DNA of 64,000 nucleotides, taken from NCBI RefSeq assembly GCF_964355755.1, contig NC_092673.1, forward strand, positions 16,526,948 through 16,590,947, read 5' to 3'. This stretch comes from Antedon mediterranea (taxonomy: Eukaryota > Animalia > Echinodermata). The notes under the pieces are model-generated. The model was not told the origin of the DNA and did not search any database. It saw nothing but the letters and a program-made list of their open reading frames with translations. Below, piece after piece: positions 40,429-64,000 of this stretch (position 1 is the stretch's first letter; the number at the start of each line of letters is the position of its first letter). A program made the position numbers and the translations under genes.

Positions 40429-40530
40429 TACCCCACCTCCACCACCACCACCACCACCATCACAGACAGTGGATGCATCGTTTGCGTTCAAAGACGACGG
40501 ATTCAATTATTGGCAAGCTACTCATCAGAA

Positions 40531-40863
40531 TTACATAATGCGATAGTTGACACTGAACCACGTTCGTTTTCCTTTCATCGAACGCTCCAGTTCATCGAAC
40601 CAATACGGTATCTGCATCTCAGCCAGTGGCGGTGGTGATGCAAGATGATCAACATTCAACGATGATGATGATGATGATGGTGGTGCTGGTGATGTAACTT
40701 TAACTGTTGCATTTCGCTGACATTTCAAGTTCTTCAAAGAAGCGCATAGACTGTCAACACTCTTAACGTATCGATCGGTGGCCATAGACACGACTCCGTT
40801 CACATCGTTCTCTACAAAGTCATCTACTCTGTACTTTTCCGAAAAGAATCTGCATACATCCAT
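40531..40863 (-). CDS. Hypothetical protein (from first plausible ATG), possibly truncated
   Basis: Part of ORF 40531..41106 not overlapped by the + ORF; head-to-head with ATG 40916. Confidence 0.35.
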   Translation of the reverse strand: MDVCRFFSEKYRVDDFVENDVNGVVSMATDRYVKSVDSLCASLKNLKCQRNATVKVTSPAPPSSSSSSLNVDHLASPPPLAEMQIPYWFDELERSMKGKRTWFSVNYRIM

Positions 40864-40915
40864 TTGCGTACATCGATTCATCACAAACACACAGGCGCAC
40901 ACACACACTTTAGAA

Positions 40916-41635
40916 ATGTCCACACTGCGTATACCCTTACTGCGATTGCCTATTTCTGACGACGACAATGATGATGATGATGATGATAATGATAATGATA
41001 CTACTTTAACAGATTCACGATTTACAGAGTTGAGTGAGAGGTACGCTAAGCTGATTAACAGTTTTAGATTGACCAGCGATGAGAACGCGAGGCTATCGAA
41101 CGTCAACCGACAGTTGAAAAGTCAACTGGAAAGTGTTAGCGACGAACGAGACGAACTTCAAAATCGACTTGAAACCGATGCACACGTTCGAGATTTGCAA
41201 GAGGATCCATCGCCCATCGAGCAGTTGGTCGAAATGTACGCCAGCGTTGTGAACGTGCCCATAACCGAATTGAGGAACGAACGTACAATCAACGGACTGT
41301 CAAGTTACTACGGCGTTGCTTTCTGGTTCCGCCTGTTGGTCGAAGAAACGTTCAATTTCCTCGATAATAAACTCAAAAAGCAACTGACAAATGAATACAA
41401 TCTAAATTGCCACAAATTTGTCACCATTGTCGTCGAAAATGGAGTGACCGGTTCGCTGTGTCAAATGATTCGACAGTTGCAATTGTTCAACTTAAACAAA
41501 AACAAACTAACCACCGAAATCAATCACAAAATAATTGCCAAGAATCTCTCTGATGAATATCAACGGTTCACCGTTCTGATTGTTCCCATCGTTGTCAAGG
41601 AGGACGCGGCTCGTCGTACACAAACGTCACTGTAA
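40916..41635 (+). CDS. Orphan protein with acidic tract and coiled coil
   Basis: First ATG of ORF 40778..41635; heptads LTSDENARLSNVNRQLKSQLESVSDERDEL. Confidence 0.65.
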   Translation: MSTLRIPLLRLPISDDDNDDDDDDNDNDTTLTDSRFTELSERYAKLINSFRLTSDENARLSNVNRQLKSQLESVSDERDELQNRLETDAHVRDLQEDPSPIEQLVEMYASVVNVPITELRNERTINGLSSYYGVAFWFRLLVEETFNFLDNKLKKQLTNEYNLNCHKFVTIVVENGVTGSLCQMIRQLQLFNLNKNKLTTEINHKIIAKNLSDEYQRFTVLIVPIVVKEDAARRTQTSL

Positions 41636-42597
41636 GAAAATACGTCAAAGTAATGCACATCGTCCACGATGCATTCATGGAACTTGACAAACGGAGGTAT
41701 GGACAGTGGAAACATCGTGGAAGCTTCTCTCGTGCACGCTTCCTTGATTTCAGGCGGCACTGCTTTTCCGTTCCATAGTACGCATTCTCTTGTCTTCCAA
41801 AGAACGATTCCTTCTACGCCCACGCGCTGTCGGTGATTATCGCCCGTGAACACTAGGTTTTGTTGCGGATCGTACAGACCGACATTGTATTCATCGTTTG
41901 AAACGTCCACGCACGGACGCCATCTCTGGAACGTTTCGCAAAATCCACTGTATTCGGCTGCATCCAACAGTATTCCAACGCTTAACAAAAGACGAACGTC
42001 CCGGCGCACAAGCATCAACGATGGAATCAAGCGTATCAATCGCAACAGTCTGTGCTCTCTATTACTACTCGGAGAAACTGTCGAATCGATTGCCAGCTTG
42101 TTGTCCAGAAACTTGTTGTACTGGAAGAAATCGTCTCGTTCTTTTTCGTTACAACACAGCGCAGTCATTTTCCATAACGGAAACATACAAGTCTGTGTTT
42201 TCACCATGTCCGAACGTGAAGCGAGTAGTTGATCTTCGTCGACAACAAGACGAGTGCGATGGCGTCGTTCCGCTTCTATCACTGTCAAAACAATGGAAAC
42301 TCCGTCATCGTACAACCGTTGGTTTTCACAGAAATTGTACACACGTGCGCCAAAGTTATGCCTACCGTCTCGAAGCTCTAACGCGATGGCAATTCGTCGA
42401 ATCTCTTTAGGCGAGCACGTTCGAAACCAAAGTTCGAATTCATACGTATCCTGTTGGCTTTGATGAAATGATGCAGTGCTAGTGATCGTTCTCGACGTAC
42501 CGCTGAAATCGGAAGCTATCAAATGCGCCTTTGTTGGAACGTGTGGCGATTTCAAACTGAGCGCAAACATAATTCCATAATTCACATAAAAAGGCAT
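41560..42597 (-). CDS. Orphan protein, 345 aa
   Basis: Long ATG-initiated ORF tiling with neighbours; no motif recognised. Confidence 0.7.
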   Translation of the reverse strand: MPFYVNYGIMFALSLKSPHVPTKAHLIASDFSGTSRTITSTASFHQSQQDTYEFELWFRTCSPKEIRRIAIALELRDGRHNFGARVYNFCENQRLYDDGVSIVLTVIEAERRHRTRLVVDEDQLLASRSDMVKTQTCMFPLWKMTALCCNEKERDDFFQYNKFLDNKLAIDSTVSPSSNREHRLLRLIRLIPSLMLVRRDVRLLLSVGILLDAAEYSGFCETFQRWRPCVDVSNDEYNVGLYDPQQNLVFTGDNHRQRVGVEGIVLWKTRECVLWNGKAVPPEIKEACTREASTMFPLSIPPFVKFHECIVDDVHYFDVFSYSDVCVRRAASSLTTMGTIRTVNR

Positions 42598-42658
42598 ACT
42601 AATAATGATTGACGTTCAGATTGCACTCTGACGACTTGTGGTTAAATTACTAAATAAA

Positions 42659-43468
42659 ATGAACAGATCAGACAAGAAAAAATTGCGTCAAAATCGTCTC
42701 TATTTTATTCGTAACATAAACAGCATTAGAGAAGTAATGGAGAAATTGGTACAGAAAGGCGTGTATTCGACCAAGAAGATGGATGCAATTTTATCTAACA
42801 CGAACGCTCGTGAACGATTGTTGATCGACATCGAAACACGAGGTAGTTTTGCGTACAATGCATTTATCGATTCTATCCATGATGGCGGATTGAACGAGTA
42901 CAAGATGACTTCAAATCCGCGCGGTTTCACAGTAATCATCAACAATTATGATGATGATGATGATGATGATGATGATTGTGCAGCGCTTGAAAATGTCTTC
43001 AATTATCTCGGCTTCCAACTGTCTGTTAATCACAATCTGACGTCCATAGAAACGAAGACGTTGCTCACACGTCTAAGTGAATACGATCACTCTAGACTAG
43101 ATTGCATTGCCGTGTGCATTCTCACTCACGGTACTGTCAATGTCACTGAAATCGTCGACTGTTTCGAAAAATGTGAAACGTTGAACGGAAAACCTAAACT
43201 CTTTTTCATACAAGCTTGTCAAGTAGACGAAACAATTGTCGTGCAGCCTCAATCGTTGCCGAGAGGCTGTGACGTATCCATTACGTATTCGACCCTGGAC
43301 CGTCAGTATAAGTTTATTCAGTCACTCTGTAAAGTGTTTCATTCGTATTCAACAAAACACGATTTAATGTCCATGTTGACTCTTGCCAACGGAACAATTA
43401 AAAGCAATCAGGTGGCCGCAACCCAGCACGGTCTTTGTAAGAAACTCTTTCTACGTCCCGTGCACTAA
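42659..43468 (+). CDS. CARD-containing caspase-like protein
   Basis: CARD (LRQNR...LLIDIETRGSFAYNAFIDSI); YKMTSNPRGFTVIINN, ILTHG, LNGKPKLFFIQACQ, FIQSLCKVF, LCKKLFL. Confidence 0.9.
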   Translation: MNRSDKKKLRQNRLYFIRNINSIREVMEKLVQKGVYSTKKMDAILSNTNARERLLIDIETRGSFAYNAFIDSIHDGGLNEYKMTSNPRGFTVIINNYDDDDDDDDDCAALENVFNYLGFQLSVNHNLTSIETKTLLTRLSEYDHSRLDCIAVCILTHGTVNVTEIVDCFEKCETLNGKPKLFFIQACQVDETIVVQPQSLPRGCDVSITYSTLDRQYKFIQSLCKVFHSYSTKHDLMSMLTLANGTIKSNQVAATQHGLCKKLFLRPVH

Positions 43469-43471
43469 AAC

Positions 43472-45712
43472 ATGCATGCCTACTTTACACGAGTGAAATA
43501 CTGCCAGAAAAAACTGACAATTCGTTGTACAGACCCGATCGGACGACGTTTGTCGCTGCAGACAAGCAATGTTGAATTCGTCGAATACGTTGAAGATGAC
43601 GTGTGCGGTGACTGTGTAATGAGCAGAGGTGACAAATACGTAGCATCGAATCGAAAATACAGAAAAGTTGTATCAAACAACAGAAAGAGAATGATAAACG
43701 CTTTCGGCAATCTTCCATCTGTCGACGACGATCTGGACGCTCAGTGTGCAGTCGGTGTACACGGATGTGCATGGCATCGATACTCGTTGAATGAGCATGG
43801 ATTCGTTTCGAACGTACACTATGATGAGCAAGTGCACTTTGAATGCGAAAAAATACATCCTGTAAAACTGTCCGTTCTCTACTTGATCATTAGATTGAAC
43901 GTATACGGACGAATCATTGCGGCACTGTCTTACGACGGTACGAGTGTTGTACAAGCAGCAACAACAGACGACAATGAACGAAGCATACTGCTTGGAATCA
44001 TAAAATCTTTCGATTCAGTTGACGTGCTCGTCTATCACGGAGAATGGGTGAGAGCGAGCATACGAGCACGATGTAAGACATTGAACGTGCCGATCGATAG
44101 CATGCCCATTTGTCTAGACACCACGAACGATGCGCGCACGTTATGTTGTGATCCAAACTCCCTGTACGAGTACGTTGGTAGACGATCCTGTTTCGAGTTG
44201 ATGGCCAGCGTATCGGACGGGGCCATGCAAGACGACGCGTCTCTTTTGCCAGAATATTGCAAACAGGTAGAATCGAAAAAATTGATTGATACACTGATGA
44301 ACGTGTCTAGACTCGTCGGAGTGTTCCCGAACGCATCGAGAACGCAGGTGCTCTCATCCCTGCTTTGCCGCGAGGCTATACGTCGACAAACTGTTTTCCC
44401 AAACACTCGTCGTAGAAAATCGACGCGAGACGTTAAAGGTGGTCTTGTACTGGAAACTGTACCCGATATTCACGAACACGTAGAAGTGTACGATTTCAAA
44501 TCCTACTATCCACGCTTTATAGTAGACAAGAATGTAGACTATTCAACAATGTGTGAGGACGGTTCTTTTGTCGATCGGAACGTACGCGAAGGTCTTTTGC
44601 CGTCTATCATGAAGAGACTGGTGTTGGGGCGAGATGCTCATCCGCAGCACGCGACTGCCTACAAACGAGCCGCCAACGAATGCATAGGGTGTCTAGTAAT
44701 TACCGGCAGTGTTCAACTGTACAACTACGTGACCTCGAAATGCAGACAGCAACTTTGTCGTCTAAAGAAATGCGCCGAAGATAACGGAGCTCGCGTTCTG
44801 TACGGAGACACGGATTCATTGTTTGTGAAACTAGCTGATGATTGTTGCAGCAGCAGAAAACGTTTGGAAGAAAGATTTGCGCAGGTTATAGGCGGCGGCG
44901 GCGGCGGCGGTGATAGCTGGCAGAAATTTGTACACAGAGAGACACTCTGTCGATTGTTATTGACCAACAAGAAGAAAAGGTACGCGTGTTTGCACGCCGA
45001 CGGGAACATCAGCACCACTGGCATGTTCACCTTAAAATGTGACGTTGAACCATTACTTACAGAACTGGATAAAAACTTTGTTGAAACTGCTCTGAAGGAA
45101 CGCGATTGCAACGCGGCCATAGATACGTGCATCGACATCATGCAAACACTTGTCTGTAAACTGAAAGACTCGCAGCAAGTAGACGAGCTAATGATGCGTA
45201 GAGTGTCCAAGAAAGAGACTAGCTCTGCCGCGTACAAGCAAATGTGCATCGCCTTTGGACTGTATCGACAAGTGCCCTACTACATCCGACATAACGGAGT
45301 GGCGTATCATCCGTTGGCTGCTGCCTGTTGCAATTCGACAGTGGACGCAACCGATCTACTAAGAGGTCTAAGAAAACGTTGTCGCATTGATACAGATTCC
45401 GTGCTGGGCGTTCTCGTTTCTTCTTCTTACAACAACAATATCATAAGTATACAAGAACGAATGGATAAGATGTACGCTATGATTGCAAACGTTCCATTGC
45501 ATCTCTCTCGCGCGAAAACATATGAGCAGCAGCAGCAGACAACAAATGTGGACTGTTGCGCTAAAGTTGTATGCACAACGAGCCAAGAAGAACGTCAGGT
45601 TAGAAAGAACGAGCACGTTTTTAGCAGCGTGCAAGAAGAAGATAAAAGAATACTGTTTATTGTACGCTGTCACGATGCCCTTTGTAAACGGGCACATGCT
45701 TTCTGCGCTTGA
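43472..45712 (+). CDS. Family B DNA polymerase, Pol alpha-like
   Basis: GGLVLE, DFKSYYP (motif A), KRAANECIGCL (B), YGDTDSLFV (C), KKKRYA; C-terminal Cys cluster. Confidence 0.9.
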   Translation: MHAYFTRVKYCQKKLTIRCTDPIGRRLSLQTSNVEFVEYVEDDVCGDCVMSRGDKYVASNRKYRKVVSNNRKRMINAFGNLPSVDDDLDAQCAVGVHGCAWHRYSLNEHGFVSNVHYDEQVHFECEKIHPVKLSVLYLIIRLNVYGRIIAALSYDGTSVVQAATTDDNERSILLGIIKSFDSVDVLVYHGEWVRASIRARCKTLNVPIDSMPICLDTTNDARTLCCDPNSLYEYVGRRSCFELMASVSDGAMQDDASLLPEYCKQVESKKLIDTLMNVSRLVGVFPNASRTQVLSSLLCREAIRRQTVFPNTRRRKSTRDVKGGLVLETVPDIHEHVEVYDFKSYYPRFIVDKNVDYSTMCEDGSFVDRNVREGLLPSIMKRLVLGRDAHPQHATAYKRAANECIGCLVITGSVQLYNYVTSKCRQQLCRLKKCAEDNGARVLYGDTDSLFVKLADDCCSSRKRLEERFAQVIGGGGGGGDSWQKFVHRETLCRLLLTNKKKRYACLHADGNISTTGMFTLKCDVEPLLTELDKNFVETALKERDCNAAIDTCIDIMQTLVCKLKDSQQVDELMMRRVSKKETSSAAYKQMCIAFGLYRQVPYYIRHNGVAYHPLAAACCNSTVDATDLLRGLRKRCRIDTDSVLGVLVSSSYNNNIISIQERMDKMYAMIANVPLHLSRAKTYEQQQQTTNVDCCAKVVCTTSQEERQVRKNEHVFSSVQEEDKRILFIVRCHDALCKRAHAFCA

Positions 45713-45783
45713 AAAAAAAATAAATAAAATTCAATAATAAATAAACAACTTGTTTGTTTTTTTTTCTTTGTGGTTTTTTATTC

Positions 45784-46920: not shown

Positions 46921-46972
46921 AATACACACAACAACAAACAAACAAAAAAACACTGTATTACATAAACATTTA

Positions 46973-47155
46973 TTATTTATTTCTTATACACATTTTCGTA
47001 AATGTTGAAAGTAAATGTTTTTCGTGTTTGTATTCTGCTAAAATCTCTTCTACTCTACAAACTAATTGTTTGTTTACGTCAGTTTTTTGGTGAAGTTGTT
47101 CCAATACACGATACAGGTCATGCACTGGCATCTGAATACATGCTTCCAAGTTCAT
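46973..47155 (-). CDS. Small hypothetical helical protein, 60 aa
   Basis: ATG-initiated, co-oriented, fills the gap between genes, AATAAA at the stop. Confidence 0.4.
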   Translation of the reverse strand: MNLEACIQMPVHDLYRVLEQLHQKTDVNKQLVCRVEEILAEYKHEKHLLSTFTKMCIRNK

Positions 47156-47352
47156 TTTTTTTCCTAATTTTTTTTTTCTACTTCATCATAAATATCATCA
47201 TATGATTTTTTTGTTTTTATTTTGTTTTTGCATTCTTCTCTTGTAGAGTAGCGATGATCCGAGTTGTATAATGAATACGTCGTTCATGACACATTTTCCA
47301 CCACCACCACCACCACCACCACCACCACCAACAACAACAACAACGGCTTGAG

Positions 47353-49739: not shown

Positions 49740-49765
49740 TGCCGTCGTGTGCGTCAATCGAATGA

Positions 49766-50998: not shown

Positions 50999-51095
50999 TT
51001 CTGTCTGTGTGCGCGAGCGGGTGTGTGTGTGTGTGTGTGTGTGGCCCGAAGAGTATATATTATAGCAATTTGTAAATTCAGATTCACCACACACG

Positions 51096-51458: not shown

Positions 51459-51590
51459 TTTCTCTTGCGCCGGTATTTTCTTCGGTAGATTTGATATGAA
51501 TTTTTACTCGACATACAACTTGTAATATAGAAACAACTGAATGTATTCTCCTTCATTCATAAGCAAGTCAAACACGAGTGTAGGTGCAGA

Positions 51591-53021
51591 ATGATTTCAT
51601 CCAATGATCTGGTGAAAACGACCGCAGAGAAGGTTATGCCTAAGTCAGATGATTTGTTACAGGACGAAAACGCTTCGTTGAAGAAAAGTGTAAAATGTAT
51701 ACACCTTCTAGAACAGTTGTTGAAAGACCGTGATAAATCGTTGAACCACTTAGAGAAGACGGTAAAAAACTATAAATTATGTATTGAACATCTACAATGG
51801 CGCTTACACAAACACAACTTGGACTCATCAGTTGATTTGAAAGAACATGAAATATTCGAGCCTGGTCACGATAAACCGATTTTAATAAGCTTGTTGAATG
51901 ACGCTATACGATATAAAAGATTTCTTGACGAGAAGTTTAGCTCCGAAGAGGTAAGACGAAACTAAGTGTGAGAATATTTGTCATGAATTCGTTAAAATTA
52001 TCATAGTGGTGTGAGTGTGTGATTTATTATTATTTTTTTTTAATGTTCAGGTTGCCGAAGCAAAAGAAACCATTTCTGTTCTTGAGAAAGAAGTTAGTAA
52101 GCTGTGTGTACAGTTGAAACGGAAAGAGAACGAACTCATTGTTGTTTTAACTAAAATGAGATCCTCAGACGACGAGAAAGATGTAGTAATTAGTAAGTTA
52201 AAATGTCAGCTACGAGATTATTTTTCACAGCGTAACAATGATGACGCTGTTCGTGACACGTTGAGCTCCGAAATAAGAACATTAAAATCAAATACTGAAC
52301 AGTTTGTTGAAGAGAAAAAGAAGATAACAAATGAACTAAAAGCATATGCGCAAAGAGAGAAGGTATGGGTACAGGAAAGAAATATGTGTTTTGCTCACGC
52401 TAGAATTTTACATTCAGAATCAAAGTTCGAAGATGAATGTAAAACGTTGCAAGAACAGGTTCGAAATTTAAGTCGTGAAAATACAGATTTATGTAGGCAA
52501 TTAAAAGAGATAATTGTTATGAACACTCGCTGGCAAAAGTACTCTGAACAAAGAGAAGCACACGTTGTGCAGTTGAAACAACAATTGAAAGTATCTGAAA
52601 ACAAAGTTTTCAAGAATCATTGCCTTATTTCTGAACTTGAGCGGATGGAAAAAGAGAAACGAAAAAAAGAAATCGATACTGCTGTTCTTAGTTTGGCCAG
52701 GGAGTTGTTATTGGCAACAGATTTGGGAAAGACATGCGAATTGAATTGACTAAACACAATAACAGACTTGATGAAATAATTGGTCAATATCAAGAGACGT
52801 ATGCGTCACTTCAACAATCTTACTTACCTTCTTCTAATACTCCCGATATTCTTGAATTAGTTTGTGATGATGATGATTATGCAGCTGTAGAAGACGGTAA
52901 TTTGGATGAATTATTACAATGTCCTCGTTTTCTGAAAGAGTTTAATATCATAGAACATGTTCAGTTAGTTGATCATTTAGATACATGTGATGTTGATGAA
53001 TACAATAATTCTATCTTATAA
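51591..53021 (+). pseudogene. TNIP2(ABIN-2)/CEP55-like coiled-coil gene, one intron (51951-52050), apparent frameshift near 52700-52750
   Basis: GTAAGA..TTCAG phase-0 intron joins two ORFs; EABR-like LKEIIVMNTRWQKYSEQREAHV; C-terminal zinc-finger-like LQCPRFLKEF...HLDTC in a shifted frame. Confidence 0.7.
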
Positions 53022-53179
53022 AATCTGTGCTGTTTTTTGTTTTTATTTTTGTTTTTTTTGTTTCTTGCTAACAATCATTAATCAATAATAAAAGAAATTA
53101 ACATAATCTATAGTACGATCTATTCGATAACAATAAAGTGCATTTGGTAATCTAGACGGGTATGTATGCTTTTAATATA

Positions 53180-53850
53180 AATGATGGCGTGTTTTTCTCT
53201 AACACGATGTTCTCAATAAAGGAATAATAAATTGATAATAAAGTGTGTATTTTGTAAACTAAACAGTATACAGAATTAAAAGTGTATTCGAAGTTATACT
53301 AAACGTAGAAGACGGCGTGTTTGTTCTCGATAAAGGGATACTGAATTAAACGGCGTATAGTACTAATATTGTAGTCCTGATAACGAAGAAAATAAGTATT
53401 GCGCCCTCTATTGACAGATAATATGACTATTATTATTATATCGTGACAGACAATATACTGTTTTTTTTTAAACGGGTATAATATTCTTTTATTATAGAAG
53501 ACGGCGTGATGTTCTGTAACGCGATGTTGTCGATAAAGGGATAATGAATTGATAAAGGGATAATGAATTGATAATATTGAGTGAGAAGTATAAGGAAAGA
53601 TCTAGAAGATTATAAACATATTTTGTATAACAGGATGTATGTTCTCTCTTGTGTGTGTGTAAACTGAATGCTTAAACATTGATGCACACTGTCATTGAGG
53701 TCGAAGTAATCAAAGGCTGTTTTCTAATTGTTGATAATCTATTGAATTCGAAAGTAATCTATTGAATTCGGAAGTGATTTGTTGAAATCGGGTCATATCT
53801 TAATTGCCTTGAAAGAAATATAAAGCAAGTTACATATTTTTGGAAAGCTT
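53180..53850. repeat. Diverged copy of the non-coding block repeated at 59.2 and 60.9 kb
   Basis: Shared aaagtgtattcgaagttatactaaacg, gtagtcctgataacgaa, cgccctctattgaca, gataaagggataatgaatt x2; 53713-53850 matches 60725-60860. Confidence 0.85.
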
Positions 53851-54685
53851 AGAGAGTATAAACGTGTACTGCCCTTGGTGAAGAAAGTCTTGAAGATGAG
53901 TTTTTCATAAATTTTTAATGTCCCAATGTATTATGTACATCGAACGAATACCCATTGAAAAGTTAAACAATCAAATGCTTTGACTTCTTACCGAAGTAAA
54001 AAAAAAAGATTTTAATTGATTTACTCATCATTATACAACATGCGACGAATGCACGACATGTTATGCCTCTTCAGTTCTCTCTTTGTTGTAAACTGAATGT
54101 TTAAATATTGACGCGCGCTGTCATTGGCGTCGATGTAAAGCTTTTATTTTTCTAAAACATTATCGACTGAACGCTATGCGTACTATCACATGTTGAATGC
54201 TTTAACAATAAATGGGCACTGTCCTTGAGAGGGAGGTCTTGAATATGAGTTTTTCATAACACAAAGTTTATTCGAGTTTATAGTAACGGACTTTCTATTT
54301 AGAAACAAATGAGAGAAGATTTGTTAATTGCGTAATACTTTTATTGATTTTTACTTTACCTATATAAAATACAATGTAAACAAAACTAATGCCCATGATT
54401 CAGTGACAACAAAGTATTGCACCCTATATCTATAATTTATAAAATCGAATTCAATCAATTCACGTTTTATTTCAGAACAAAGTCCATATCATAACACACA
54501 ACAATATTCAATAAATTAATGTAAGTAAGTAAAAAAAAATATATAAAACAAGTCGCACAAAAATGCCGTCGGAAAACCGTCGGTTTTAAATTAGGAGTGA
54601 AAAAAACATTTTAATGGCTATACTGTTACGTAAAAAGTATACATGAAATTATGTATACAGAAGTTCAATCCATTTTCTGTGCAAT

Positions 54686-54717
<32 letters not shown>

Positions 54718-54742
54718 ATTTATTTTAAAAAAAAACCAAAAA

Positions 54743-56383: not shown

Positions 56384-56395
56384 AGCAGCAGCACA

Positions 56396-58876
56396 ATGTC
56401 GGCGATTTACAGATGGCAAGACACAAATTCAAAGAAATTGTACGCGGCACTGATCGTTGAACGTAAATGGATAATACTGGAACGTTTCTCCCCTAGTGAT
56501 GAATGGAGTCCACCGTTGCCTACACTCGACGTTACACCGGACACATTGGAAATCGAAATGATAACAAAGCCAAGCTGGAACGGTGTTGTGTTCGGAGACT
56601 ATAATCCGCATCCGTTGCGTGAGCGAGGAGTCGCAATGAGACCGACGCTAAATTTAGCTTCGAATCTGTCGATGGCGCAGATATCCGAATGGCCAACGCA
56701 TGTCGGTAAGTTCACCGATACCGATATGACGTACGAGAAGAGAACCGATGTTCTTGTGATTAACGGCTGTAGGGTAAACAGATCATATCCGACAATTTCG
56801 AGAATCATCAATCATCATCTTCACCACCACCGTCCCAATGTGAAAACTAAAAACAAACGTCGACTCATCACGCATATTACACCACCACCACCATCACCAC
56901 CACCACCACCACCACCATCATCATCAGAAGAAGAAGACTTTATGCACACGCCTCGAATGTTGAAGCTGTTCACGTCGATGACAAGCGATCCGAACGTAGC
57001 TCTATTGGCACTCTCATTTGAGCTGTTCACCGCGTCTACCAAAAATGTGCACGCGCTACGACGGCTGCTCTCGAACATATGCGAGAGAACATCGGCATCA
57101 GATCACATACTGACGCAATCGAAACAGTTTTGGTTTCATATGCGATCGCATGGAATCAATCAACACAACTGGCATTCAAAATCTCCATCGAATGTCGTTG
57201 CAAAGGCGAGAGAGTATCATCGTCCGCCAGTACAAGACGAATTGATTCTGGCCAGCGTTCTGTTGTGGGAAACGGCCACGTTTGCGCGTGGTAGACGTAC
57301 CCCGTTCACTTTTGAAGCAGTAAAGATGCAGTGTTATTTGAACGAAGCGCGTGCTGCTGCTGCTGCTGCTGCTGTTGAAGAAGAAGAAATCCTACGCAGA
57401 GCGTTGAATGAAGTCGCCAAGAAAAGAGAACGCACGACGTTCGCGTTAGAAGCTGAGAAGATGGGTCTAGAGAACTACGCAGTTATGAACGGTGTCTACA
57501 TCGATCTTGAAACAGTTTTGTTCAATCTTCCAAAATTACGCGCTACTCTCTACAAAGAAATCGGAAAAAGATTGTTACTGTTTGAGGATTTTGAAACGAC
57601 GATTCAATGTCTGTGCCTGGACGTGCTTCGACAAGCTTCTTCCTTCTTGAGCAGTTTCGAACTCATCAAATCCATCGCTCCTTTGTATCCGAAAAAACGC
57701 AGACGAATCACACAGAAACGCATCGAAGGAATCGACAGGTTTCTTACGAATTTTGAGCGACGCGTTGACGGCAAACGAAGAAAACGTTTTGTCAAGTACC
57801 TGCAAACTTGGATTCCGAAATTTCCTGTTCCGGAACACGACGGTTACGCTTCCTTACAACAAAGATGCGATCAAAACGAGGCGCTTCGACTGTTTGCAAT
57901 TGCCTATCCGGCCATAACATTCTCGTTCGCCGTTCCCGAAGTAAAAAACGACGCCCAGCTTATGTTTGCTCTCGCCAACTGCACATCACACCTGGGTAGA
58001 CTGATGTGGTTTGACTTTGATCCGGTGACGGTACGCATCAGATCATCCGTGATCGGTCTCACGCCCCTACAAGAACAACGCCTCGAAATGGCTTCTCTTC
58101 AACCAGCGTATGACGCGTACGAAGAGTCTATCCGCGTCACTCAGCACATTAGACACAGTATACCTTTCATGCACGCATCGATATTCGAAGGCGTTCAAGC
58201 CAACGTGGTTTGCCGACAGAACGAACGCTACGTAACTCGTCTCTCGGCATATCCTCTTATCTTGGCCTCGTATGACGTTATAGACGCGAATGAAGGTAAT
58301 CGGCAACCTCCACAACCCAAACACGGAGAATGTACATCCTATTACCAGAACGTTGTCACTGTCGACAATGCTGGAGTGGTTAAATGGAATCATACATCGC
58401 CATGTTTTGCGCGATTCATTCAATGTGCAAACGTTTTGCTTTTATGTCATAAGAAATCAGACTTTGTTCGTGGCCCTATTCATTCCCCTGAAGATAGCGT
58501 TCACGTACTTTGTCAACTTGCACTCGATCACAAGGACGACGATAACGATGACGGAGAACTTGCGTCACCGAGATCGTTTCCTTGTCATCTACCTCGACCG
58601 TTTGATGACAATATAGTATTGATAAACGATGACAGTGGTGGTGATGGCGAGGAGAAAATACGGTTCTGTATCGTCAGCCCGGACGATATGAGGCCTTTTT
58701 TCCCAAAAGATTTCATCGAAAGTATCATTGCCGATCCCCATCGGACGCCCGTTATACAGAAAAAGATGGTGTTTTACTTGAGGGCCGATCTTACCAATGA
58801 ATACACAGAAAATCACTTTCTCTCCGACAAGGACAGAAGTGTTCTTGTAGCCGGTTCAATCATAAGACGTCGGTGA
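56396..58876 (+). CDS. Orphan protein, 826 aa
   Basis: Long uninterrupted ATG ORF with poly-H, poly-P and poly-A tracts; no family recognised. Confidence 0.8.
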   Translation: MSAIYRWQDTNSKKLYAALIVERKWIILERFSPSDEWSPPLPTLDVTPDTLEIEMITKPSWNGVVFGDYNPHPLRERGVAMRPTLNLASNLSMAQISEWPTHVGKFTDTDMTYEKRTDVLVINGCRVNRSYPTISRIINHHLHHHRPNVKTKNKRRLITHITPPPPSPPPPPPPSSSEEEDFMHTPRMLKLFTSMTSDPNVALLALSFELFTASTKNVHALRRLLSNICERTSASDHILTQSKQFWFHMRSHGINQHNWHSKSPSNVVAKAREYHRPPVQDELILASVLLWETATFARGRRTPFTFEAVKMQCYLNEARAAAAAAAVEEEEILRRALNEVAKKRERTTFALEAEKMGLENYAVMNGVYIDLETVLFNLPKLRATLYKEIGKRLLLFEDFETTIQCLCLDVLRQASSFLSSFELIKSIAPLYPKKRRRITQKRIEGIDRFLTNFERRVDGKRRKRFVKYLQTWIPKFPVPEHDGYASLQQRCDQNEALRLFAIAYPAITFSFAVPEVKNDAQLMFALANCTSHLGRLMWFDFDPVTVRIRSSVIGLTPLQEQRLEMASLQPAYDAYEESIRVTQHIRHSIPFMHASIFEGVQANVVCRQNERYVTRLSAYPLILASYDVIDANEGNRQPPQPKHGECTSYYQNVVTVDNAGVVKWNHTSPCFARFIQCANVLLLCHKKSDFVRGPIHSPEDSVHVLCQLALDHKDDDNDDGELASPRSFPCHLPRPFDDNIVLINDDSGGDGEEKIRFCIVSPDDMRPFFPKDFIESIIADPHRTPVIQKKMVFYLRADLTNEYTENHFLSDKDRSVLVAGSIIRRR

Positions 58877-59196
58877 ATGAACACACACGCACACAATTCA
58901 AAACTCGGTGTTCAATTTAGTTATTATTAAGCATTGGCAATTTGGAACAGGACAGTGTAGAAATTGAAACATCATCATCCATTTAAGTTTAGTACTTTTT
59001 TTACGTATGGTGTTTGTTAGCACGCGATTAATAGCGCCTACAATTTTCGGTGAAGATATATACTTATTGTCAAACCTGCTAATGATAAAATAATTTTCAT
59101 AAAGCCCGGCGAGCAGTCTTGTCCAAAAAAAAAAAAGAGAGCAAAAGGGTTTAATTTGTGATTGTGAGATTAATATTAAAATAATAATTAAAAAAA

Positions 59197-60142
59197 ATTT
59201 AATTTCAACACAAGGCTCCTTTTGTGGTGACACGAGCCATATTTTCTTTTATTATCCCTAACACAATGTTCTCGAAAAAAAAAATTGACCATAACGTGTC
59301 ACTTTGTAAACTAAACGGTATACATTCTTTTAGTTATAGTTGTTCACTAACACGAATTATTCGATAATGAACCTTAATTAAAAAAAAACAAACAAAAGTG
59401 TATTCGAAGTTATACTAAACGGTATATTAATAGAAGACAAAGTATTTGTTATCGATGAAGGGATAATGAAATTGATATTATTATAATTTAAACGGCGTGT
59501 TTAGTATTTTGTAGTCCTGATAACGAATACAATAAGTAGTTCGCCCTCTATTGACAAATAATATACCTGCGTTATACGCCGCGTGACAGACAATAATTAT
59601 ACTAGGCCTACTGTGTTTCTTAATGGGTATATTTTAGTTTTATTATAGAAGTTCTGTAACGCGATGTTGTCGATAAAGGGATAATGAATTGATAAAGGGA
59701 TAATGAATTGATGATTGAGTGAGAAGTATAAGGAATGATCTAGAAGGTTAAGAACATAATATTTTGTATAAGGGGATGTATGTTCTGTCTTGTGTGTAAA
59801 CTGAATGCTTAAACATTGACGCACACTGCCATTGAGGTCGAAGTAATCTTTGCATACGGATGCGTGTTACTGCTCTATCAAGATCAGGACTGCATTATTC
59901 ACACACATAAAACACTGAGAGTAATAAAGAGAATCTATGCTTGATTGTTTTACACTCGAAAAATGTATTAGTATTTTGTAATAAAATAAAGGTAATTCAA
60001 ATTGTCACATGATGCATTAATAAATTAATTAATGTTCATAAACGTCCAAATACTAGTTTTCTAGCATTTGTATTAAAATAATGCCTGCTATCTGTCTATA
60101 TAGCAGATATATTTTCATGTTTCGTTCTGCTCTGCATACGGG

Positions 60143-60181
<39 letters not shown>

Positions 60182-62022
60182 TGTGTCTTCTACTGACTGA
60201 CTGACTGACGTTCACGATCTAACGTTACCGCTCCAAGAATTCAATACTACAATACATTGTTTCTTGTAATATTGATATTGCTATACCTTTCAATGTTCAT
60301 AAATGTCAATATGCTGGTGTCTCCTATTCCATCTATCTTTGGTACAGTTCTTGAGGATGAGGATACTAAAGACTGGATGGGGATAGACAAAGGTTCTGAC
60401 GGCGAGGATAGTTATTGAAAACGAAGAAGAATGTGTAAGAATTTGTATAGGCCTAATCATGATCTAGAGTAGAAGTGAGTTATGTTAACAGATTGTGTGT
60501 GCTCAAAATAATCCATTAATCAAAATAATTATGCATTTTTAATTGTTGATTTTATATATGAAGATGATAATAAAATTGAAAGAAATTAAAGTGTATTCTT
60601 TATTCGTATTCATTGTTTAAGTGTGTAAAATTTCATGTAGATCCAGTAATAATAACTAATGGTATCCAATGCGAATGTGTTGTGGTTATTGAATAGAACC
60701 AATGTAATGGTCCACTGAACTTCAAAGGCTGCTTTCTAATTGTTGATAATCTATTGAATTCGGAAGTAATCTATTGAATTCGGAGGTGATTTGTTGAAAT
60801 CGGGTCATATTTAATTGCCTTGAAAGAAATATAAAGCAAGTTACATATTTTTTTGGAAAGTTTAAAGAATGGAGATTAATATAATAATAATAATAATAAA
60901 ATTTTAATTTCAACACAAGGCTCCTTTTGTGGTGACACTAGCCATATTTTCTTTTATTATCCCTAACACGATGTTCTCTAAAAAAAAAAATTGACCATAA
61001 CATGTCACTTTGTAAACTAAACGGTATACATTCTTTTAGTTATAGTTGTTCACTAACACGATTTATTCGATAATGAACCCTAATTAAAAAAAACAAACAA
61101 AAGTGTATTCGAAGTTATACTAAACGGTATATTAATAGAAGACAAAGTATTTGTTATCGATGAAGGGATAATGAAATTGATATTATTATAATTTAAACGG
61201 CGTGTTTAGTATTTTGTAGTCCTGATAACGAATACAATAAGTAGTTCGCCCTCTATTGACAAATAATATACCTGCGTTATATGCCGCGTGACAGACAATA
61301 ATTATAGGCCTATTGTGTTTCTAAATGGGTATATTTTAGTTTTATTATAGAAGCTCTGTAACGCGATGTTGTCGATAAAGGGATAATGAATTGATAAAAG
61401 GATAATGAATTGATGATTGAGTGAGAAGTATAAGGAATGATCTAGAAGGTTATGAACATAATATTGTATAAGGCGATGTATGTTCTCTCTTGTGTGTAAA
61501 CTGAATGCTTAAACATTGACGCACACTGTCATTGAGGTCGAAGTAATCATTGGATACGGATGCGTGTTACTGCTATATCAGGATCAGGACTGCATTATTC
61601 AAACACATAAAACACTGAGAGTAATAAAGAGAATCTATGCTTGATTGTTTTACACTCGAAAAATTTATTAGTATTTTGTAATAAAATAAAGGTAATTCAA
61701 ATTGTTACATGATGCATTAATAAATTAATTAATGTTCATAAACGTCCAAATACTAGTTTTCTAGAATTTGTATTAAAATAATGTCTGCTATCTGTCTATG
61801 TAGCAGATATATGTTCATGTTTCGTTCTGTTCTGCATACGGGATGTGTGTGTGTGTGTCTTCTACTGACTGGCTGACGTTCACGATTTAACGTTACCGCT
61901 CCAAGAATTCAATACTACAATACATTGTTTGTTGTAATATTGATATTGCTATACCTTTCAATGTTCATAAATGTCAATATGCTGGTGCTTCCTATTCCAT
62001 CTATCTTTGGTACAGTTCTTGA
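59197..62022. repeat. Direct repeat ~1.15 kb: 59197-60354 and 60902-62022
   Basis: Near-identical from tttaatttcaacacaaggctcc to ggtacagttcttga; includes the 3' end of the AlkB-like gene. Confidence 0.9.
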
Positions 62023-62628
62023 CCATTCATTGATTGTTTCAGAATTTATTACCAGCATCGAACCGTGCTCCATTTTTATGTTCACAGGTTTAATGTTTTT
62101 GTTGGTGCGGTGTTCGAATCTACAGATTCTAGTAGGTCCCAGAGACATAATGCATACAGGACTTATTTTGCTCCTTTGTACATCATTAAGATAGCATTCC
62201 GCTGAATCCTCTGCTCTTGTCAAAGTTACCATATTGTAAAAATGACCAGTCGCAATGTGTATCCATTCACGCATTTCGAGTAGAAACTTTGGCCAGTAAC
62301 ACAGAGGACTTCTCGCTGTGTCGTCGATGTTTGTGTGAACTCCTATTTGGAATGACAACTCCAAATCACCGTACGCTGCACATCTAATGTGATCTACTTC
62401 AGTGATCACATCGCGTAACTTATATAGAGAATCGAATAAATGTGTTTTCCTACATTGTTTTAAAATAGTGTCTGCTATCAGTCTATGTAGCAGATGTACA
62501 CGAACGCATTTCATGTTATCTTCCGGTCTGCATACGGTGTGTGAATGAAAGCCGAAATAAAACTCATCTTCTGACTGGCTGACGTTCATGATTACTTTAT
62601 TGCTACAAGAATTCACTACAACTTCCAA
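61915..62628 (-). CDS. AlkB (ALKBH2/3)-like 2OG-Fe(II) fold protein, predicted inactive
   Basis: TGHFYN, IMSLGPTRICRF, MEHGSMLVI, EWSRTVPK, LTF follow the ALKBH2/3 pattern; HxD, distal H and RxxxxxR absent; ORF start is non-ATG, so true start uncertain. Confidence 0.75.
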   Translation of the reverse strand: MEVVVNSCSNKVIMNVSQSEDEFYFGFHSHTVCRPEDNMKCVRVHLLHRLIADTILKQCRKTHLFDSLYKLRDVITEVDHIRCAAYGDLELSFQIGVHTNIDDTARSPLCYWPKFLLEMREWIHIATGHFYNMVTLTRAEDSAECYLNDVQRSKISPVCIMSLGPTRICRFEHRTNKNIKPVNIKMEHGSMLVINSETINEWSRTVPKIDGIGSTSILTFMNIERYSNINITTNNVL

Positions 62629-62680
62629 TTAAAGTTTGAAACTAAAACTCCATACTGGTCGATTTTTATACTTTGCGATG

Positions 62681-63624
62681 AAGGTTAACTACACGCGTTG
62701 TCAACAAACAACGAAACCGATGAATGATTGTCGATTATACTGATGTGTATGTGTGGTGCGCGCTTTAAAATTCGTATTGAATATATCGTGCCTTCTCTTC
62801 CTCCTACCCGGCTTAATTTGCGTATGGTTTTCGAATGATGATCATGAAACACACAAACGGGTGTAATTCCATCGTTAGTTACTTTAGTGTTACAATAAAA
62901 CCGTCTCTCGGCAATATGATGGAAATAAGCGTCACTGTCGGTAAATGTATACACCGGTCCCAAAGAGTCAGGGTCAATTACTTTTTTTTAAGAAATATGT
63001 TTAATGTGTATTATTATTATTATAGTTTAATATAAGCGTATTTTATAAATTTAATCTCCATTGATTCTATCATCATATTTTAAAATCAAAATGCTATGTT
63101 TTAAATTCTATTTGGGTTTCTCTCTCTCTCTCTCTCTCTCTCCCTCTCCCTCTCCTTCTCTCCTTATTAATTTAGATTCGACTATGTAGAAACGGAATTT
63201 AATTTCCAAATTAAAACACTGCATTGTAACAATATTATAATCGGTCTGCTTTTCTTTTATCGATGATGACAATAGAAATAAGGGTAGGGCGTGTGTATGT
63301 ATCACCGCCGGTCAGTGTACACACCAGGTCACAAAGCTTTAAAGAAATATTTTTAATTGTTATCCCGAATATGTGTGTTAGAGTAATTCGTTTTGGTATA
63401 TAATCATTTTGGTATACTAACAATTTGAACAAGCTGCCTCTACGCGCCTAGTCGTAAATCCAATCCTAGATTCTATATTTACCGATATTGCGCCCCCTAT
63501 ATAGTTTTTGATAAATTACTAATAATGTTATGGTATCGATAGATTGTAAGCCAGCTGAATGGTTAGTTCTTGAGTCTCGTAATGTAACGCTGTAGCATTA
63601 GGCTAGGGTTCGAGAATTGATTTG

Positions 63625-63659
<35 letters not shown>

Positions 63660-64000
63660 TAATATTTGTTTTACTCACCATCTTCTTTATTGACCATAGT
63701 TAAGGTTAACTACACGCGATTTGTCAACAAACAACGAAACCGATGAATGATTGTCGATTACACTGATGTGTATGTGTGGTGCGCGCTTTTAAATTCGTAT
63801 TGAATATATCGTGCCTCCTCTTCCTCCTACCCGGCTTAATTTGCGTATGGTTTTCGAATGATGATCATGAAATACACAAACGGGTGTAATTCCATCGTTA
63901 GTTACTTTAGTGTTTCAATAAAACCGTCTCTGCAATATCATGGAAATAAGCGTCACTGTCGGTAAATGTATACACCGGTCCCAAAGAGTCAGGGTCAATT
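62681..64000. repeat. Direct repeat ~300 bp: 62681-62978 and ~63702-64000 (runs off window)
   Basis: aaggttaactacacgcg...ccaaagagtcagggtcaatt present twice with few indels. Confidence 0.9.

Follow-up and report, generated by a model that had tools for sequence, protein, structure and literature searches.

Introduction

Among DNA viruses of invertebrates, the Malacoherpesviridae carry BIR/IAP genes, and WSSV has homologous-region (hr) repeats. An endogenous nimavirus of shrimp occupies a microsatellite, and its captured host genes, which contain introns, include an IAP (PMC7016691); Teratorn is a herpes-like giant integrated element in fish (PMC10175614); and ascoviruses are invertebrate DNA viruses with their own caspase and/or IAP (PMC12655742).

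Here we examine a 64,000-nt window of the Antedon mediterranea genome (GCF_964355755.1, NC_092673.1, positions 16,526,948-16,590,947, forward strand), the right-hand part of which, 40.4-64 kb, was described in an initial annotation as a virus-like island of unrecognised lineage. By examining its coding density and composition, the relatives of its genes, its repeats, and contigs from other sequencing runs, we conclude, with somewhat better than even confidence, that 40.5-58.9 kb is a germline-integrated piece of an undescribed, nucleus-replicating large DNA virus.

Results

Extent and composition of the coding block

The dense coding block spans 40531-58876 and contains ten ORFs, read from ATG to stop, that reach 200 aa or more (Table 1). 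ORFs of at least 100 aa occupy 0.83 of its bases, against a mean of 0.019 and a maximum of 0.078 in 200 shuffles (longest ORF 183 aa, none of 200 aa or more); the cover in the host part at 1-30000 is 0.09. The CpG observed/expected ratio is 1.33-1.44 in all five 4-kb bins of 40001-60000, versus 0.30-0.92 in nine of the ten bins of 1-40000 (the remaining bin, at 1.65, is a tandem array), and GC content is 0.41-0.46 in the coding bins versus 0.28-0.39 in 1-30 kb. Genes lie on both strands and are either 3-97 bp apart (61 bp between o345 and the caspase, 71 bp between the polymerase and o378, 26 bp between kinase-1 and the IAP; others in Table 1) or overlapping (o239 and o345 by 76 bp), the one outlier being o378 and o259, with 432 bp between them. 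Triplet runs are found in or beside coding sequence: poly-D (o239 and caspase), poly-S (kinase-1), poly-P (o826) and poly-E (o378). The annotation's description of dense intact ORFs with small gaps or overlaps, of abundant CpG unlike the host part, and of triplet microsatellites in coding sequence is thus borne out.

Other parts of that description need narrowing. Our count is about 14 genes (15-16 ORFs), so the more than 15 ORFs proposed are not clearly reached; the genes are almost free of introns, as stated, but the coiled-coil gene has a GT..AG intron. The island is not uniformly compact, given this intron, the frame break in the same gene, and the scarcity of ORFs in 53.0-54.7 kb (non-coding) and 58.9-64 kb: at 58877-64000, which is mostly repeats, ORFs of at least 100 aa cover 0.13 and one ORF reaches 200 aa. 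The proposed extent of 40.4-64 kb therefore holds for 40.5-58.9 kb, apart from 53.0-54.7 kb, and not for the repeats at 58.9-64 kb.

Table 1. Features of the island and its left boundary (window coordinates)
Feature	Position	Strand	Description
30-bp tandem array, 27.9 copies	39597..40429	.	left boundary (TRF)
Orphan o116, 116 aa	40531..40881	-	no Pfam match; divergent from o239, 34-bp gap with (CA)n run
Orphan o239, 239 aa	40916..41635	+	acidic, poly-D, coiled-coil-like middle; only sub-threshold coiled-coil families
Orphan o345, 345 aa	41560..42597	-	no Pfam match; no IMG/VR relative
CARD + caspase (C14), 269 aa	42659..43468	+	Pfam CARD 38.9 bits (cut-off 23.9), Peptidase_C14 74.9 (cut-off 21.4)
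Family-B DNA polymerase, 746 aa	43472..45712	+	PF00136 73.6 bits; starts 3 bp past caspase stop
Orphan o378, 378 aa	45784..46920	-	tail-to-tail with polymerase
Lineage-specific conserved gene o259, 259 aa	47353..48132	-	overlaps kinase-1 end by 58 bp
Kinase-1, 554 aa	48075..49739	-	divergent kinase core and family-specific C-terminal region; Pkinase 23.8 bits, below cut-off 31.7
IAP, 410 aa	49766..50998	-	three BIR, weak UBA, C-terminal RING; BIR 159.6 bits, zf-C3HC4_3 46.3
Orphan o120, 120 aa	51096..51458	+	divergent from IAP, 97-bp spacer
Coiled-coil gene	51591..53021	+	GT..AG intron 51951-52050, phase 0; frame break near 52.70-52.75 kb
hr-like non-coding repeat, copy A	53150..53860	+	partial further copy 54083-54289
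Kinase-2, 546 aa	54743..56383	-	Pkinase 32.4 bits, cut-off 31.7
Orphan o826, 826 aa	56396..58876	+	divergent from kinase-2, 12-bp gap; three basic NLS-like runs
Two tandem ~1.7-kb units	59189..62600	+	94-100% alike over matched blocks; hr-like copies B and C, one each
ORF, 224 aa	61915..62589	-	weak AlkB-type 2OG-Fe(II) oxygenase match PF13532, 19.9 bits, below cut-off 31.2
Direct repeat	62691..64000	.	62691-62979 and 63714-64000, spacing ~1022 bp; runs off window end

The family-B DNA polymerase

The polymerase contains the motifs YGDTDS, KKRYA and DFKSYYP and a cysteine-rich C-terminus (38 Cys in the whole protein), and has no exonuclease Pfam domain. Among 5.8 billion proteins it has one close homolog, an unnamed protein (P0001) that is 47% identical over the full length (E 1e-213). 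The search yielded 262 proteins at E <= 0.001 out of 6462 candidates; the second-best match has an E-value of 1.1e-13 and 40% coverage. Everything below P0001 is archaeal or bacterial, archaeal matches coming first, and the weaker ones include archaeal PolB and bacterial Pol II. A search of longer proteins returned a single archaeal match only, and the JGI metagenome contigs no relative. In PDB, its profile matches Pyrobaculum PolB (1e-24), Pol delta (1e-14), Pol alpha (9e-14) and herpes simplex polymerase (0.024). At the Exo I and Exo II positions, both the window polymerase and P0001 seem to carry substitutions, as read from the P0001 alignment and from a non-significant N-terminal alignment (i-Evalue 210); since both known members carry these substitutions, the enzyme is, on this weak alignment, probably proofreading-dead. 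The element may copy its own DNA with this polymerase.

Kinases and a conserved gene pair

The two kinases are paralogs (33% identical, about 470 aa aligned), and kinase-2 is 50% identical (86/172) to a partial Anneissia japonica protein (P0122). A kinase profile run against 1.84 billion representatives found nine specific proteins (E 6e-47 to 1e-19) that align well past the kinase core; generic kinases start at E 7e-9. One of ten proteins looked up was named, a partial feather-star protein from a 1.1-kb contig. The kinase tree has three deep clades; in it, both window paralogs group with the feather-star fragment (support 100/99). Such kinases might reprogram host or viral proteins.

Overlapping the end of kinase-1 is o259, which has no match in Pfam, PDB or Atlas. 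With a kinase relative (P0129) as query, a contig (L001) was recovered from the JGI metagenome contigs, in which a 240-aa ORF (L001:6916-7638), 44% identical to o259, overlaps the end of a kinase gene (5328-6929) in the same arrangement as in the window. The pair is conserved, because the L001 kinase is likewise followed by an o259 homolog; a secreted metzincin adjoins this module in L001.

Apoptosis genes, orphans and predicted expression

Both residues of the caspase dyad, His (ILTHG) and Cys (QACQ), are present, and the small-subunit loop region is shorter than in caspase-3 in an alignment to the caspase-3 chain. The closest solved structure to the IAP is cIAP1 (E 4e-36). Both genes are intronless and probably represent captured host cDNAs; the short CARD-caspase would act with the IAP to keep apoptosis at bay.

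The coiled-coil gene gives a sub-threshold match to CEP55 EABR (21.4 bits, cut-off 25). The largest orphan, o826, has no homolog in protein searches, no P-loop and no hydrophobic segment, and its structure model (pLDDT 35) is unusable; throughout the island ORFs no P-loop was found, and no hydrophobic segment except one inside the IAP RING. Of the two 1.7-kb units, the one without the 224-aa ORF holds a fragment of it at 60247-60411. The 71-bp spacer between the polymerase and o378 contains AATAAA on both strands, and the 97-bp spacer between the IAP and o120 contains a (TG)n run and a TATA-like sequence. The AATAAA signals, the TATA-like bidirectional spacers and the NLS-like runs suggest that host RNA polymerase II would transcribe these genes in the nucleus.

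Hallmark searches and lineage

Above the curated Pfam cut-offs, the island ORFs carry CARD and Peptidase_C14, DNA_pol_B, three BIR domains with a RING and, in kinase-2, Pkinase. A wider Pfam scan took in every frame between stops that is 60 aa or longer and overlaps 40.4-64 kb, 126 in all. Seven of them had a match at E <= 0.001: the caspase, the polymerase, the two kinases, the IAP, the sub-threshold EABR match and a spurious satellite match. No capsid, terminase, packaging ATPase, PIF, integrase or transposase was found among the 126, in agreement with the annotation, which had recognised none of the first five. Nothing in the window was recognised as a gene for virion structure, packaging, helicase-primase, PIF or transcription, and no island ORF matched the protein-primed polymerase family PF03175. 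The gene content reported earlier stands for replication, signalling (kinases), apoptosis control and orphans; its TBP-like component, of which o259 is the likely source, gained no support from any search.

IMG/VR scans gave no relative, and none of nine island proteins looked up is present in a 15-billion-protein collection. Relatives of the polymerase, the kinases and o259 are confined to a few mostly unnamed sequences, scattered across sources of very different composition. With one close polymerase homolog, none for o826, and eight of the nine specific kinase relatives unnamed, the view that the lineage is unrecognised is well supported by these sequence searches.

Repeats, left boundary and copies in other runs

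A (CCA)n-type run at about 40430-40465 directly follows the 30-bp array. No contig among four runs crosses this 830-bp satellite at the host junction, and no terminal inverted repeat was seen at the left end (the right end lies outside the window). A non-coding repeat of about 500 bp, with an iterated 17-nt motif, is present in three copies; the motif occurs 10 times versus 0.37 expected, always inside the repeats and on one strand. By analogy with the homologous regions of other invertebrate DNA viruses, the dispersed repeats may act as origins or enhancers.

Copies of the island, near-identical to 97-98% identical, are found in contigs from runs that carry three organism labels and come from at least three studies. 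In one run (X1) the island contigs are nearly identical to the window, with 0-4 differences per piece, whereas the flank contigs of this run depart from it in many positions. The copies in X5 (organism B) and X8 (organism C) differ by about 1.2-3.3% and share a 1000-bp indel in the coiled-coil gene (51746 joined to 52747); X5 also has a 39-nt indel, of in-frame length, in o378. Per-contig depth in X1 is 97-207 for the island and, of the same order, 123-171 for single flank contigs, a weak hint, as depth is not copy number.

Discussion

The gene content, the compact two-strand layout, the dispersed repeats, the conserved kinase/o259 pair and the scatter of relatives across compositionally very different sources agree with the earlier term virus-like, while the lack of a virion or packaging gene weighs against it. 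The accessory set (intronless IAP, CARD-caspase and hr-like repeats, with a metzincin in L001) favours an integrated virus; against it, the flank contigs of X1 differ from the window, and integration is read from the assembly. The word endogenous accordingly reflects the assembly and the contigs of other runs, with the junction satellite uncrossed. Large is an extrapolation, because dense coding is in view over no more than about 18 kb (about 18-24 kb in all); the block probably continues across the repeats and past the window's end at 64 kb. Since the ORFs are intact and CpG is undepleted, the copy would be recent or maintained.

It is unlikely, in our judgement, that the island is instead a giant self-replicating DNA transposon, with its own family-B polymerase for copy-out, captured IAP, caspase and kinases, and with both its ends and its transposase or integrase lying beyond the window. 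Such an element would fit the absence of capsid and packaging genes from the 126 frames, the multiple internal repeats, the boundary at a satellite/microsatellite, and the copies under three organism labels at genome-like contig depths; composite virus-transposon elements do exist, as Teratorn exemplifies (PMC10175614). However, no integrase, transposase or PF03175 match was found in the island ORFs, the left end has no terminal inverted repeat, and the per-contig depths, weak as they are, do not point to many copies. Self-synthesising transposons use the protein-primed type of polymerase, whereas the closest enzymes to the one in the window are of the RNA-primed kind, archaeal and Pol delta/alpha.

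Quite improbable is a virus-derived gene set domesticated by the host, as opposed to a recent or autonomous provirus. The intact ORFs and the in-frame length of the o378 indel in X5 would agree with domestication, and copies that differ by 1.2-3.3% and share an indel, under two further organism labels, would be expected of an old orthologous insertion. If the host methylates such DNA, however, a long-resident insertion would not be expected to keep its high CpG ratio beside a flank of 0.3-0.9, and the island retains both the polymerase and hr-like repeats, which domestication usually loses (as in polydnavirus-type cases).

We find it very doubtful that an episomal or exogenous virus genome of the specimen was misjoined to host DNA in assembly via the 30-bp satellite. 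The join lies exactly at the uncrossed array, composition differs sharply across it, and in X1 the flank diverges where the island is nearly identical; against this, the island recurs under three organism labels in runs from no fewer than three studies, with contig depths similar to those of nearby host repeats (a weak argument), and it contains a gene with an intron as well as microsatellites that resemble the host's. An ordinary host gene cluster is barely credible: IAP, caspase and kinase domains are common in animals and a host DED-domain exon lies at 7922-8641, but none of nine island proteins is in the 15-billion-protein collection, the polymerase has one homolog and o826 none, and intronless genes lie 3-97 bp apart on both strands with CpG unlike the flank.

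The integrated virus that we favour differs from each system with which it can be compared. Palm, fingers and thumb motifs of archaeal PolB, Pol alpha/delta and bacterial Pol II align to residues ~280-590 of the window polymerase, which is nonetheless only ~25-30% identical to RNA-primed family-B polymerases over 40% of its length and, unlike them, is without an exonuclease Pfam domain. As for malacoherpesviruses and herpes-like elements such as Teratorn, the match of the polymerase to herpes simplex polymerase is only E 0.024 (1e-24 for archaeal PolB and 1e-14 for Pol delta), and no terminase, HK97 capsid or piggyBac transposase was found in the window. In contrast to the apoptosis genes of ascoviruses and baculoviruses, the caspase of the window bears a CARD prodomain and its small subunit is shortened, and the rest of the island has no match to those virus families. 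As for nimaviruses, no PIF or nimaviral family match was found in the island, none of the nine specific kinase relatives is a named virus protein, and the nimaviral DNA polymerase, ~2455 aa (PMC7016691), compares with 746 aa here, with no long relative found. Yet the endogenous nimaviruses of decapod crustaceans, for example Nimav-1_LVa, resemble the island as large DNA virus genomes integrated at simple repeats of an invertebrate genome, with an IAP, protein kinases and captured host genes that contain introns (PMC7016691).

Extent and composition of the island

The window splits at about 40.4 kb into a host-like left part and a gene-dense right part (the island), the boundary being a 30-bp tandem array. 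The stretch from 40531 to 58876 holds ten open reading frames (ORFs) that run from ATG to stop over 200 aa or more, and 0.83 of its bases lie in ORFs of 100 aa or longer. Shuffled sequence (200 replicates) reached a mean cover of 0.019 and at most 0.078, without any ORF of 200 aa, and in the first 30 kb of the window the cover is 0.09. The initial annotation had described dense ORFs over the whole of 40.4-64 kb, a description that stands for about 40.5-58.9 kb and is limited to that stretch because 53.0-54.7 kb is without a long ORF and 58.9-64 kb consists mostly of repeats (cover by ORFs of at least 100 aa only 0.13). Both strands carry genes, and neighbors overlap or are separated by 3-97 bp except at one 432-bp gap, with spacers of 12, 34, 61 and 97 bp between divergent pairs and AATAAA present in convergent or terminal spacers. 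The same annotation saw almost no introns, and here the exception is the coiled-coil gene, whose GT..AG intron is followed by a frame that resumes at 52051 and breaks near 52.70-52.75 kb. The CpG o/e ratio stays at 1.33-1.44 in every 4-kb bin between 40 and 60 kb (five bins); left of the island it is 0.30-0.92 in nine of ten bins, the tenth (20-24 kb), a tandem array, reaching 1.65.

Runs of (CA)n/(TG)n are found in or beside the divergent spacers of o116/o239 (40885-40912) and IAP/o120 (51008-51043), where they may be part of promoters; a further run (60144-60186) lies beside copies of an AlkB-like ORF.

The first 30 kb of the window are AT-rich (GC 0.28-0.39) and hold large tandem arrays. 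The long frame at 31-36 kb looks, from its translation, like a complete gag-protease-RT-RNaseH-integrase polyprotein of a BEL/Pao-type LTR retrotransposon, and suggests a young element. A host gene of apoptosis-adaptor type, with a death-effector domain, is situated about 30 kb from an island that has its own IAP and caspase, which is probably a coincidence.

Features of the window and of a related metagenome contig (L001)
Feature	Position	Strand	Remarks
Host exon, death-effector domain	7922-8641	+	35.3 bits, just under cut-off 35.9
Tandem array	9279-9738		18 bp x 26; open in several frames
Tandem array	16046-18623		69 bp x 37
Tandem array	19973-21140		75/227 bp x 15
Retroelement pieces	28279-29860, 37042-37581	-	RVT_1 57.4 bits; gag aspartyl-protease fragment; SCAN-domain ORF 33.3 bits
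Retrotransposon polyprotein frame	31011-36071	-	1686 aa; read from translation
Tandem array, left boundary of island	39597-40429		30 bp, 27.9 copies, then (CCA)n-type run
o116	40531-40881	-
o239	40916-41635	+
o345	41560-42597	-
CARD + caspase (C14)	42659-43468		both Pfam domains above cut-offs
Family-B DNA polymerase	43472-45712	+	746 aa; PF00136 73.6 bits, cut-off 23
o378	45784-46920	-
o259	47353-48132	-
Kinase-1	48075-49739	-
IAP	49766-50998	-	3 BIR stretches 159.6 bits; RING 46.3 bits; cIAP1 E 4e-36
o120	51096-51458	+
Coiled-coil gene	51591-53021	+	GT..AG intron 51951-52050; exon 1 ends in phase 0 at 51950
Non-coding unit, about 500 bp	53.15-53.86, 59.29-60.13, 61.0-61.83 kb		three copies
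Kinase-2	54743-56383	-
o826	56396-58876	+
Metzincin with signal peptide (L001)	7603-8292	-	adjoins kinase/o259 pair; HEMGHLLGLRH; Matrixin 26.6 bits, cut-off 24

Gene content

Fifteen island ORFs were scanned for Pfam domains at curated cut-offs, and a further scan of every stop-to-stop frame that overlaps 40.4-64 kb and is 60 aa or longer (n = 126) gave nothing beyond the first: seven frames had a match at E <= 0.001, one of them spurious on the satellite and one a sub-threshold CEP55-EABR. The earlier failure to recognise a capsid, terminase, PIF or integrase gene was thus borne out, as none of the 126 frames matched a Pfam capsid, terminase, ATPase, PIF, integrase or transposase family. The island ORFs contain no P-loop, and their sole hydrophobic stretch is inside the RING; the proteins with basic runs resembling nuclear localization signals include the polymerase, o826 and o259. 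Scans of the window for tRNA and Rfam families gave no matches, and an exact look-up of nine window proteins in a large protein collection found none present.

Two genes are predicted to act in apoptosis. The first encodes a predicted caspase (C14) with a CARD: its dyad His (ILTHG) and Cys (QACQ) align to caspase-3 and the p10 part is present, with the small-subunit loop region shortened relative to caspase-3. The second, with its BIR and RING domains, is a predicted IAP (BIR-RING E3 ligase family). One ORF weakly matches the AlkB-type 2OG-Fe(II) oxygenases (PF13532, E 9e-4), but its 19.9 bits fall short of the 31.2-bit cut-off for that family.

Several ORFs are orphans, a label that refers to Pfam alone for o239 and o120 and to Pfam and IMG/VR for o378 and o345. 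The largest, o826, had no homolog among 7982 scored candidates and none in the ESM Atlas, and its single-sequence AlphaFold2 model (pLDDT 35) was unusable; o826, o378 and o345 had no relatives in IMG/VR.

A DNA polymerase with one close homolog

Assignment to family B was judged by motif A (DxxSxYP), a KxY in the B region, motif C (YGDTDS) and a Pfam score above cut-off. The island polymerase is accordingly a predicted family-B enzyme (PF00136), with the motifs DFKSYYP, KKRYA and YGDTDS conserved in P0001, its one close homolog (738 aa, unnamed, on a 5.5-kb contig), to which it is 47% identical over the full length. P0001 emerged from a search of 5.8 billion proteins that yielded 6462 candidates and 262 matches at E <= 0.001; the next match has an E-value of 1.1e-13 over 40% of the query, and those matches that have names belong to archaeal PolB or bacterial Pol II. 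In the length range expected for nimavirus or malacoherpesvirus polymerases (1307-3730 aa), a single archaeal protein matched. No relative was found among JGI metagenome contigs queried with the polymerase, or in IMG/VR queried with the polymerase and P0001 as a pair.

Against solved structures, a two-sequence profile of the polymerase and P0001 matched Pyrobaculum PolB (1e-24), human Pol delta (1e-14) and yeast Pol alpha (9e-14), and, lower, Thermococcales PolB (about 1e-12), E. coli Pol II (1.5e-11) and the herpes simplex polymerase (0.024). The exonuclease domain PF03104, carried by most of the other matches listed (P0002 onward), is absent by Pfam from both proteins. At the position of the Exo I motif FDIE in 5mdn they read LIIR and LSIR, and the residues at Exo I and at Exo II alike seem to be replaced in an N-terminal alignment that is itself non-significant (domain i-Evalue 210). 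The polymerase has 38 cysteines, and a C-terminal CC...C...C..C pattern is kept in P0001; we take this pattern to resemble the zinc modules of eukaryotic replicative polymerases.

A kinase family and a conserved gene pair

The two kinases of the island are 33% identical over about 470 residues; kinase-2 scores above the Pkinase cut-off (32.4 bits against 31.7) and kinase-1 below it (23.8 bits). A two-kinase profile searched against all 1.84 billion representatives matched 62 proteins at E <= 0.001, nine of which are specific relatives (E 6e-47 to 1e-19), generic kinases starting at 7e-9. Eight of the nine are 479-639 aa long and match far outside the kinase core; the ninth, P0122, is a partial protein of 180 aa matched along its whole length. 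P0122 is also the only one of ten looked up that has a name: it comes from a 1.1-kb contig of the feather star Anneissia japonica, and is 50% identical to kinase-2 (86/172). H-x-D...N and DFG are invariant in the alignment of 11 family members, the tree of which has three deep clades, with kinase-1, kinase-2 and P0122 grouped (support 100/99). Within this group P0122 is nearer kinase-2 than kinase-1 (88/88), and therefore the kinase duplication predates the split of the window and feather-star elements. About 150 C-terminal alignment columns after the kinase core are common to all full-length members and match nothing in Pfam. The kinase pair had no match in IMG/VR, where a scan for the kinase family retrieved 13 giant-virus loci sharing the generic catalytic loop only (20-48% identity over 42-163 residues), and prokaryote genome contigs queried with the relative P0128 yielded none.

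The metagenome contig L001 (8440 bp) encodes the relative P0129 as a kinase gene at 5328-6929, the end of which is overlapped by a 240-aa ORF (6916-7638) that is 44% identical to o259; in the island, o259 shares such an overlap, likewise oriented, with the end of kinase-1. The recurrence of the pair establishes o259 as a real gene and the two genes, kinase and o259, as a module of the lineage. Positions 1-5300 of L001 are without long ORFs and have a CpG o/e of 1.2-1.4.

o259 is probably the ORF that the initial annotation had called TBP-like. To the eye it may have two half-repeats with TBP-like spacing. A TATA-box-binding protein would have two PF00352 repeats and a saddle fold, and the label drew no support from Pfam (E <= 5), from the PDB by two-sequence profile (E <= 10) or from the Atlas, none of which gave a match. 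The o259 pair had no match in IMG/VR, and a two-sequence AlphaFold2 model (pLDDT 30) was unusable.

Repeats within the island

Three copies of a non-coding unit of about 500 bp are present, the second and third inside a 1.7-kb tandem duplication; aligning all three leaves 475 columns of the 711-nt first copy unchanged. A 17-nt motif occurs ten times with at most 3 mismatches, always within these units and always on one strand, against an expectation of 0.37 and at most three occurrences in any of 100 shuffles. Dispersed "homologous regions" (hr) are a hallmark of several invertebrate DNA virus groups, and by analogy the units may act as an origin or enhancer.

Copies in other sequencing runs

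Parts of 42659-50998 were found in ten runs carrying four organism labels from five studies, and contigs of runs were placed on positions 36001-56000 of the window. Those of run X1 (organism A) differ from the window at 0-4 positions per piece, those of X5 (organism B) by about 1.4-3.1% and those of X8 (organism C) by about 1.2-3.3%. Contigs of both X5 and X8 join 51746 to 52747, omitting 1000 bp of the coiled-coil gene. The X5 contigs have two other letters at this join, a 39-nt skip inside o378 (46512-46552) and a 65-nt replacement at 51518-51584; X5 has no cover over 43566-45757 (the polymerase gene) and no contig joining across it, which is not evidence of absence. Per-contig depth on the island is of the same order as on single flank contigs of the same run, such depths not being copy numbers. 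A very high-copy repeat lies at 37335-38668, with a summed contig depth of 6400-8500 (X1) and 30000-41000 (X5); on the island it is about 150-250. None of the ten runs is listed as RNA; run X9, which may be RNA, has a few short pieces on the island at depths of 2.8-21, which were not counted toward expression.

Interpretation

We consider it probable, by a modest balance, that the island derives from a large DNA virus of an undescribed lineage that replicates in the nucleus, and is a piece of its genome integrated in the germline. This reading is favored by the private polymerase; by lineage-specific conserved genes in conserved order; by accessory genes that, as a set, typify invertebrate DNA viruses (IAP, caspase and kinases, with a metalloprotease in the relative L001); by hr-like repeats and undepleted CpG; by a compact two-strand layout with eukaryotic-type signals; and by relatives scattered over sources of very different composition. 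More tentatively, and as a whole at rather less than an even chance, the island may reveal genomically, for the first time, a lineage of family rank or deeper among the large nuclear DNA viruses of marine animals, with two markers (a polymerase that is short, proofreading-dead and placed in a tree beside those of archaea and Pol delta/alpha, and the kinase/o259 pair), the present copy being a young, near-intact provirus whose remainder, including an unknown virion module, would lie just beyond the window.

With no virion gene in view, the main rival is a giant transposon that replicates itself; we regard it as unlikely, given that the polymerase is of the RNA-primed type and that integrase and transposase are absent from the 24 kb, although the right end of the element is outside the window. 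That the island is a domesticated gene set seems to us improbable. An assembly chimera with an episomal virus is decidedly improbable. No contig among the placed runs crosses the satellite at the left boundary, and for this reason integration is not independently confirmed. An ordinary host cluster is hardly to be entertained.

Some ten public sequences, scattered as they are, attest to a lineage that is real and old; the polymerase, the kinases and most other genes are without a named relative. If the rest of the element has virion genes, it defines a new virus group, and the polymerase, kinase and o259 would serve as a marker set for finding that group in other genomes and metagenomes; if it has none, the element would be a giant transposon that copies itself with an RNA-primed-type polymerase, likewise a new kind. 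In the intronless IAP and the short CARD-caspase there is, besides, a natural example of a mobile element capturing apoptosis genes.

Comparison with known viruses and elements

Invertebrates are known to harbor integrated genomes of large DNA viruses, so that what is new here is the lineage and not the kind; to our knowledge the polymerase or virion genes nearly always place such viruses in a known group. In full-text literature searches we found no description of such an element.

Polintons/Mavericks, adintoviruses and adenoviruses are recognized by a PF03175 polymerase, an rve integrase, a double jelly-roll capsid, a packaging ATPase and a cysteine protease, none of which occurs in the 15 ORFs or the 126 frames; their PolB is protein-primed, whereas the island polymerase is nearest to RNA-primed enzymes. 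The hallmarks of the Nucleocytoviricota (double jelly-roll capsid, A32 ATPase, D5 primase-helicase, VLTF3 and a delta-like PolB with exonuclease) are all absent within the window. The Herpesvirales have a terminase ATPase, an HK97-fold capsid protein and a UL30-type polymerase; terminase and capsid are absent within the window, beyond which they may lie, and the herpes simplex polymerase matches at 0.024 as against 1e-24 for archaeal PolB. Membership of baculovirus or nudivirus types (PIF, LEF) was likewise rejected. The Nimaviridae, defined by a wsv514-like giant polymerase (about 2400 aa), PIFs and wsv-type capsid and envelope genes, differ from the island, on published features, in having PIFs, a family absent here, and a far longer polymerase. 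The nearest precedent in form is nevertheless an endogenous shrimp nimavirus which, as described in PMC7016691, has a polymerase of about 2455 aa as against 746 aa here, sits in a microsatellite, and carries intron-bearing captured genes that include an IAP.
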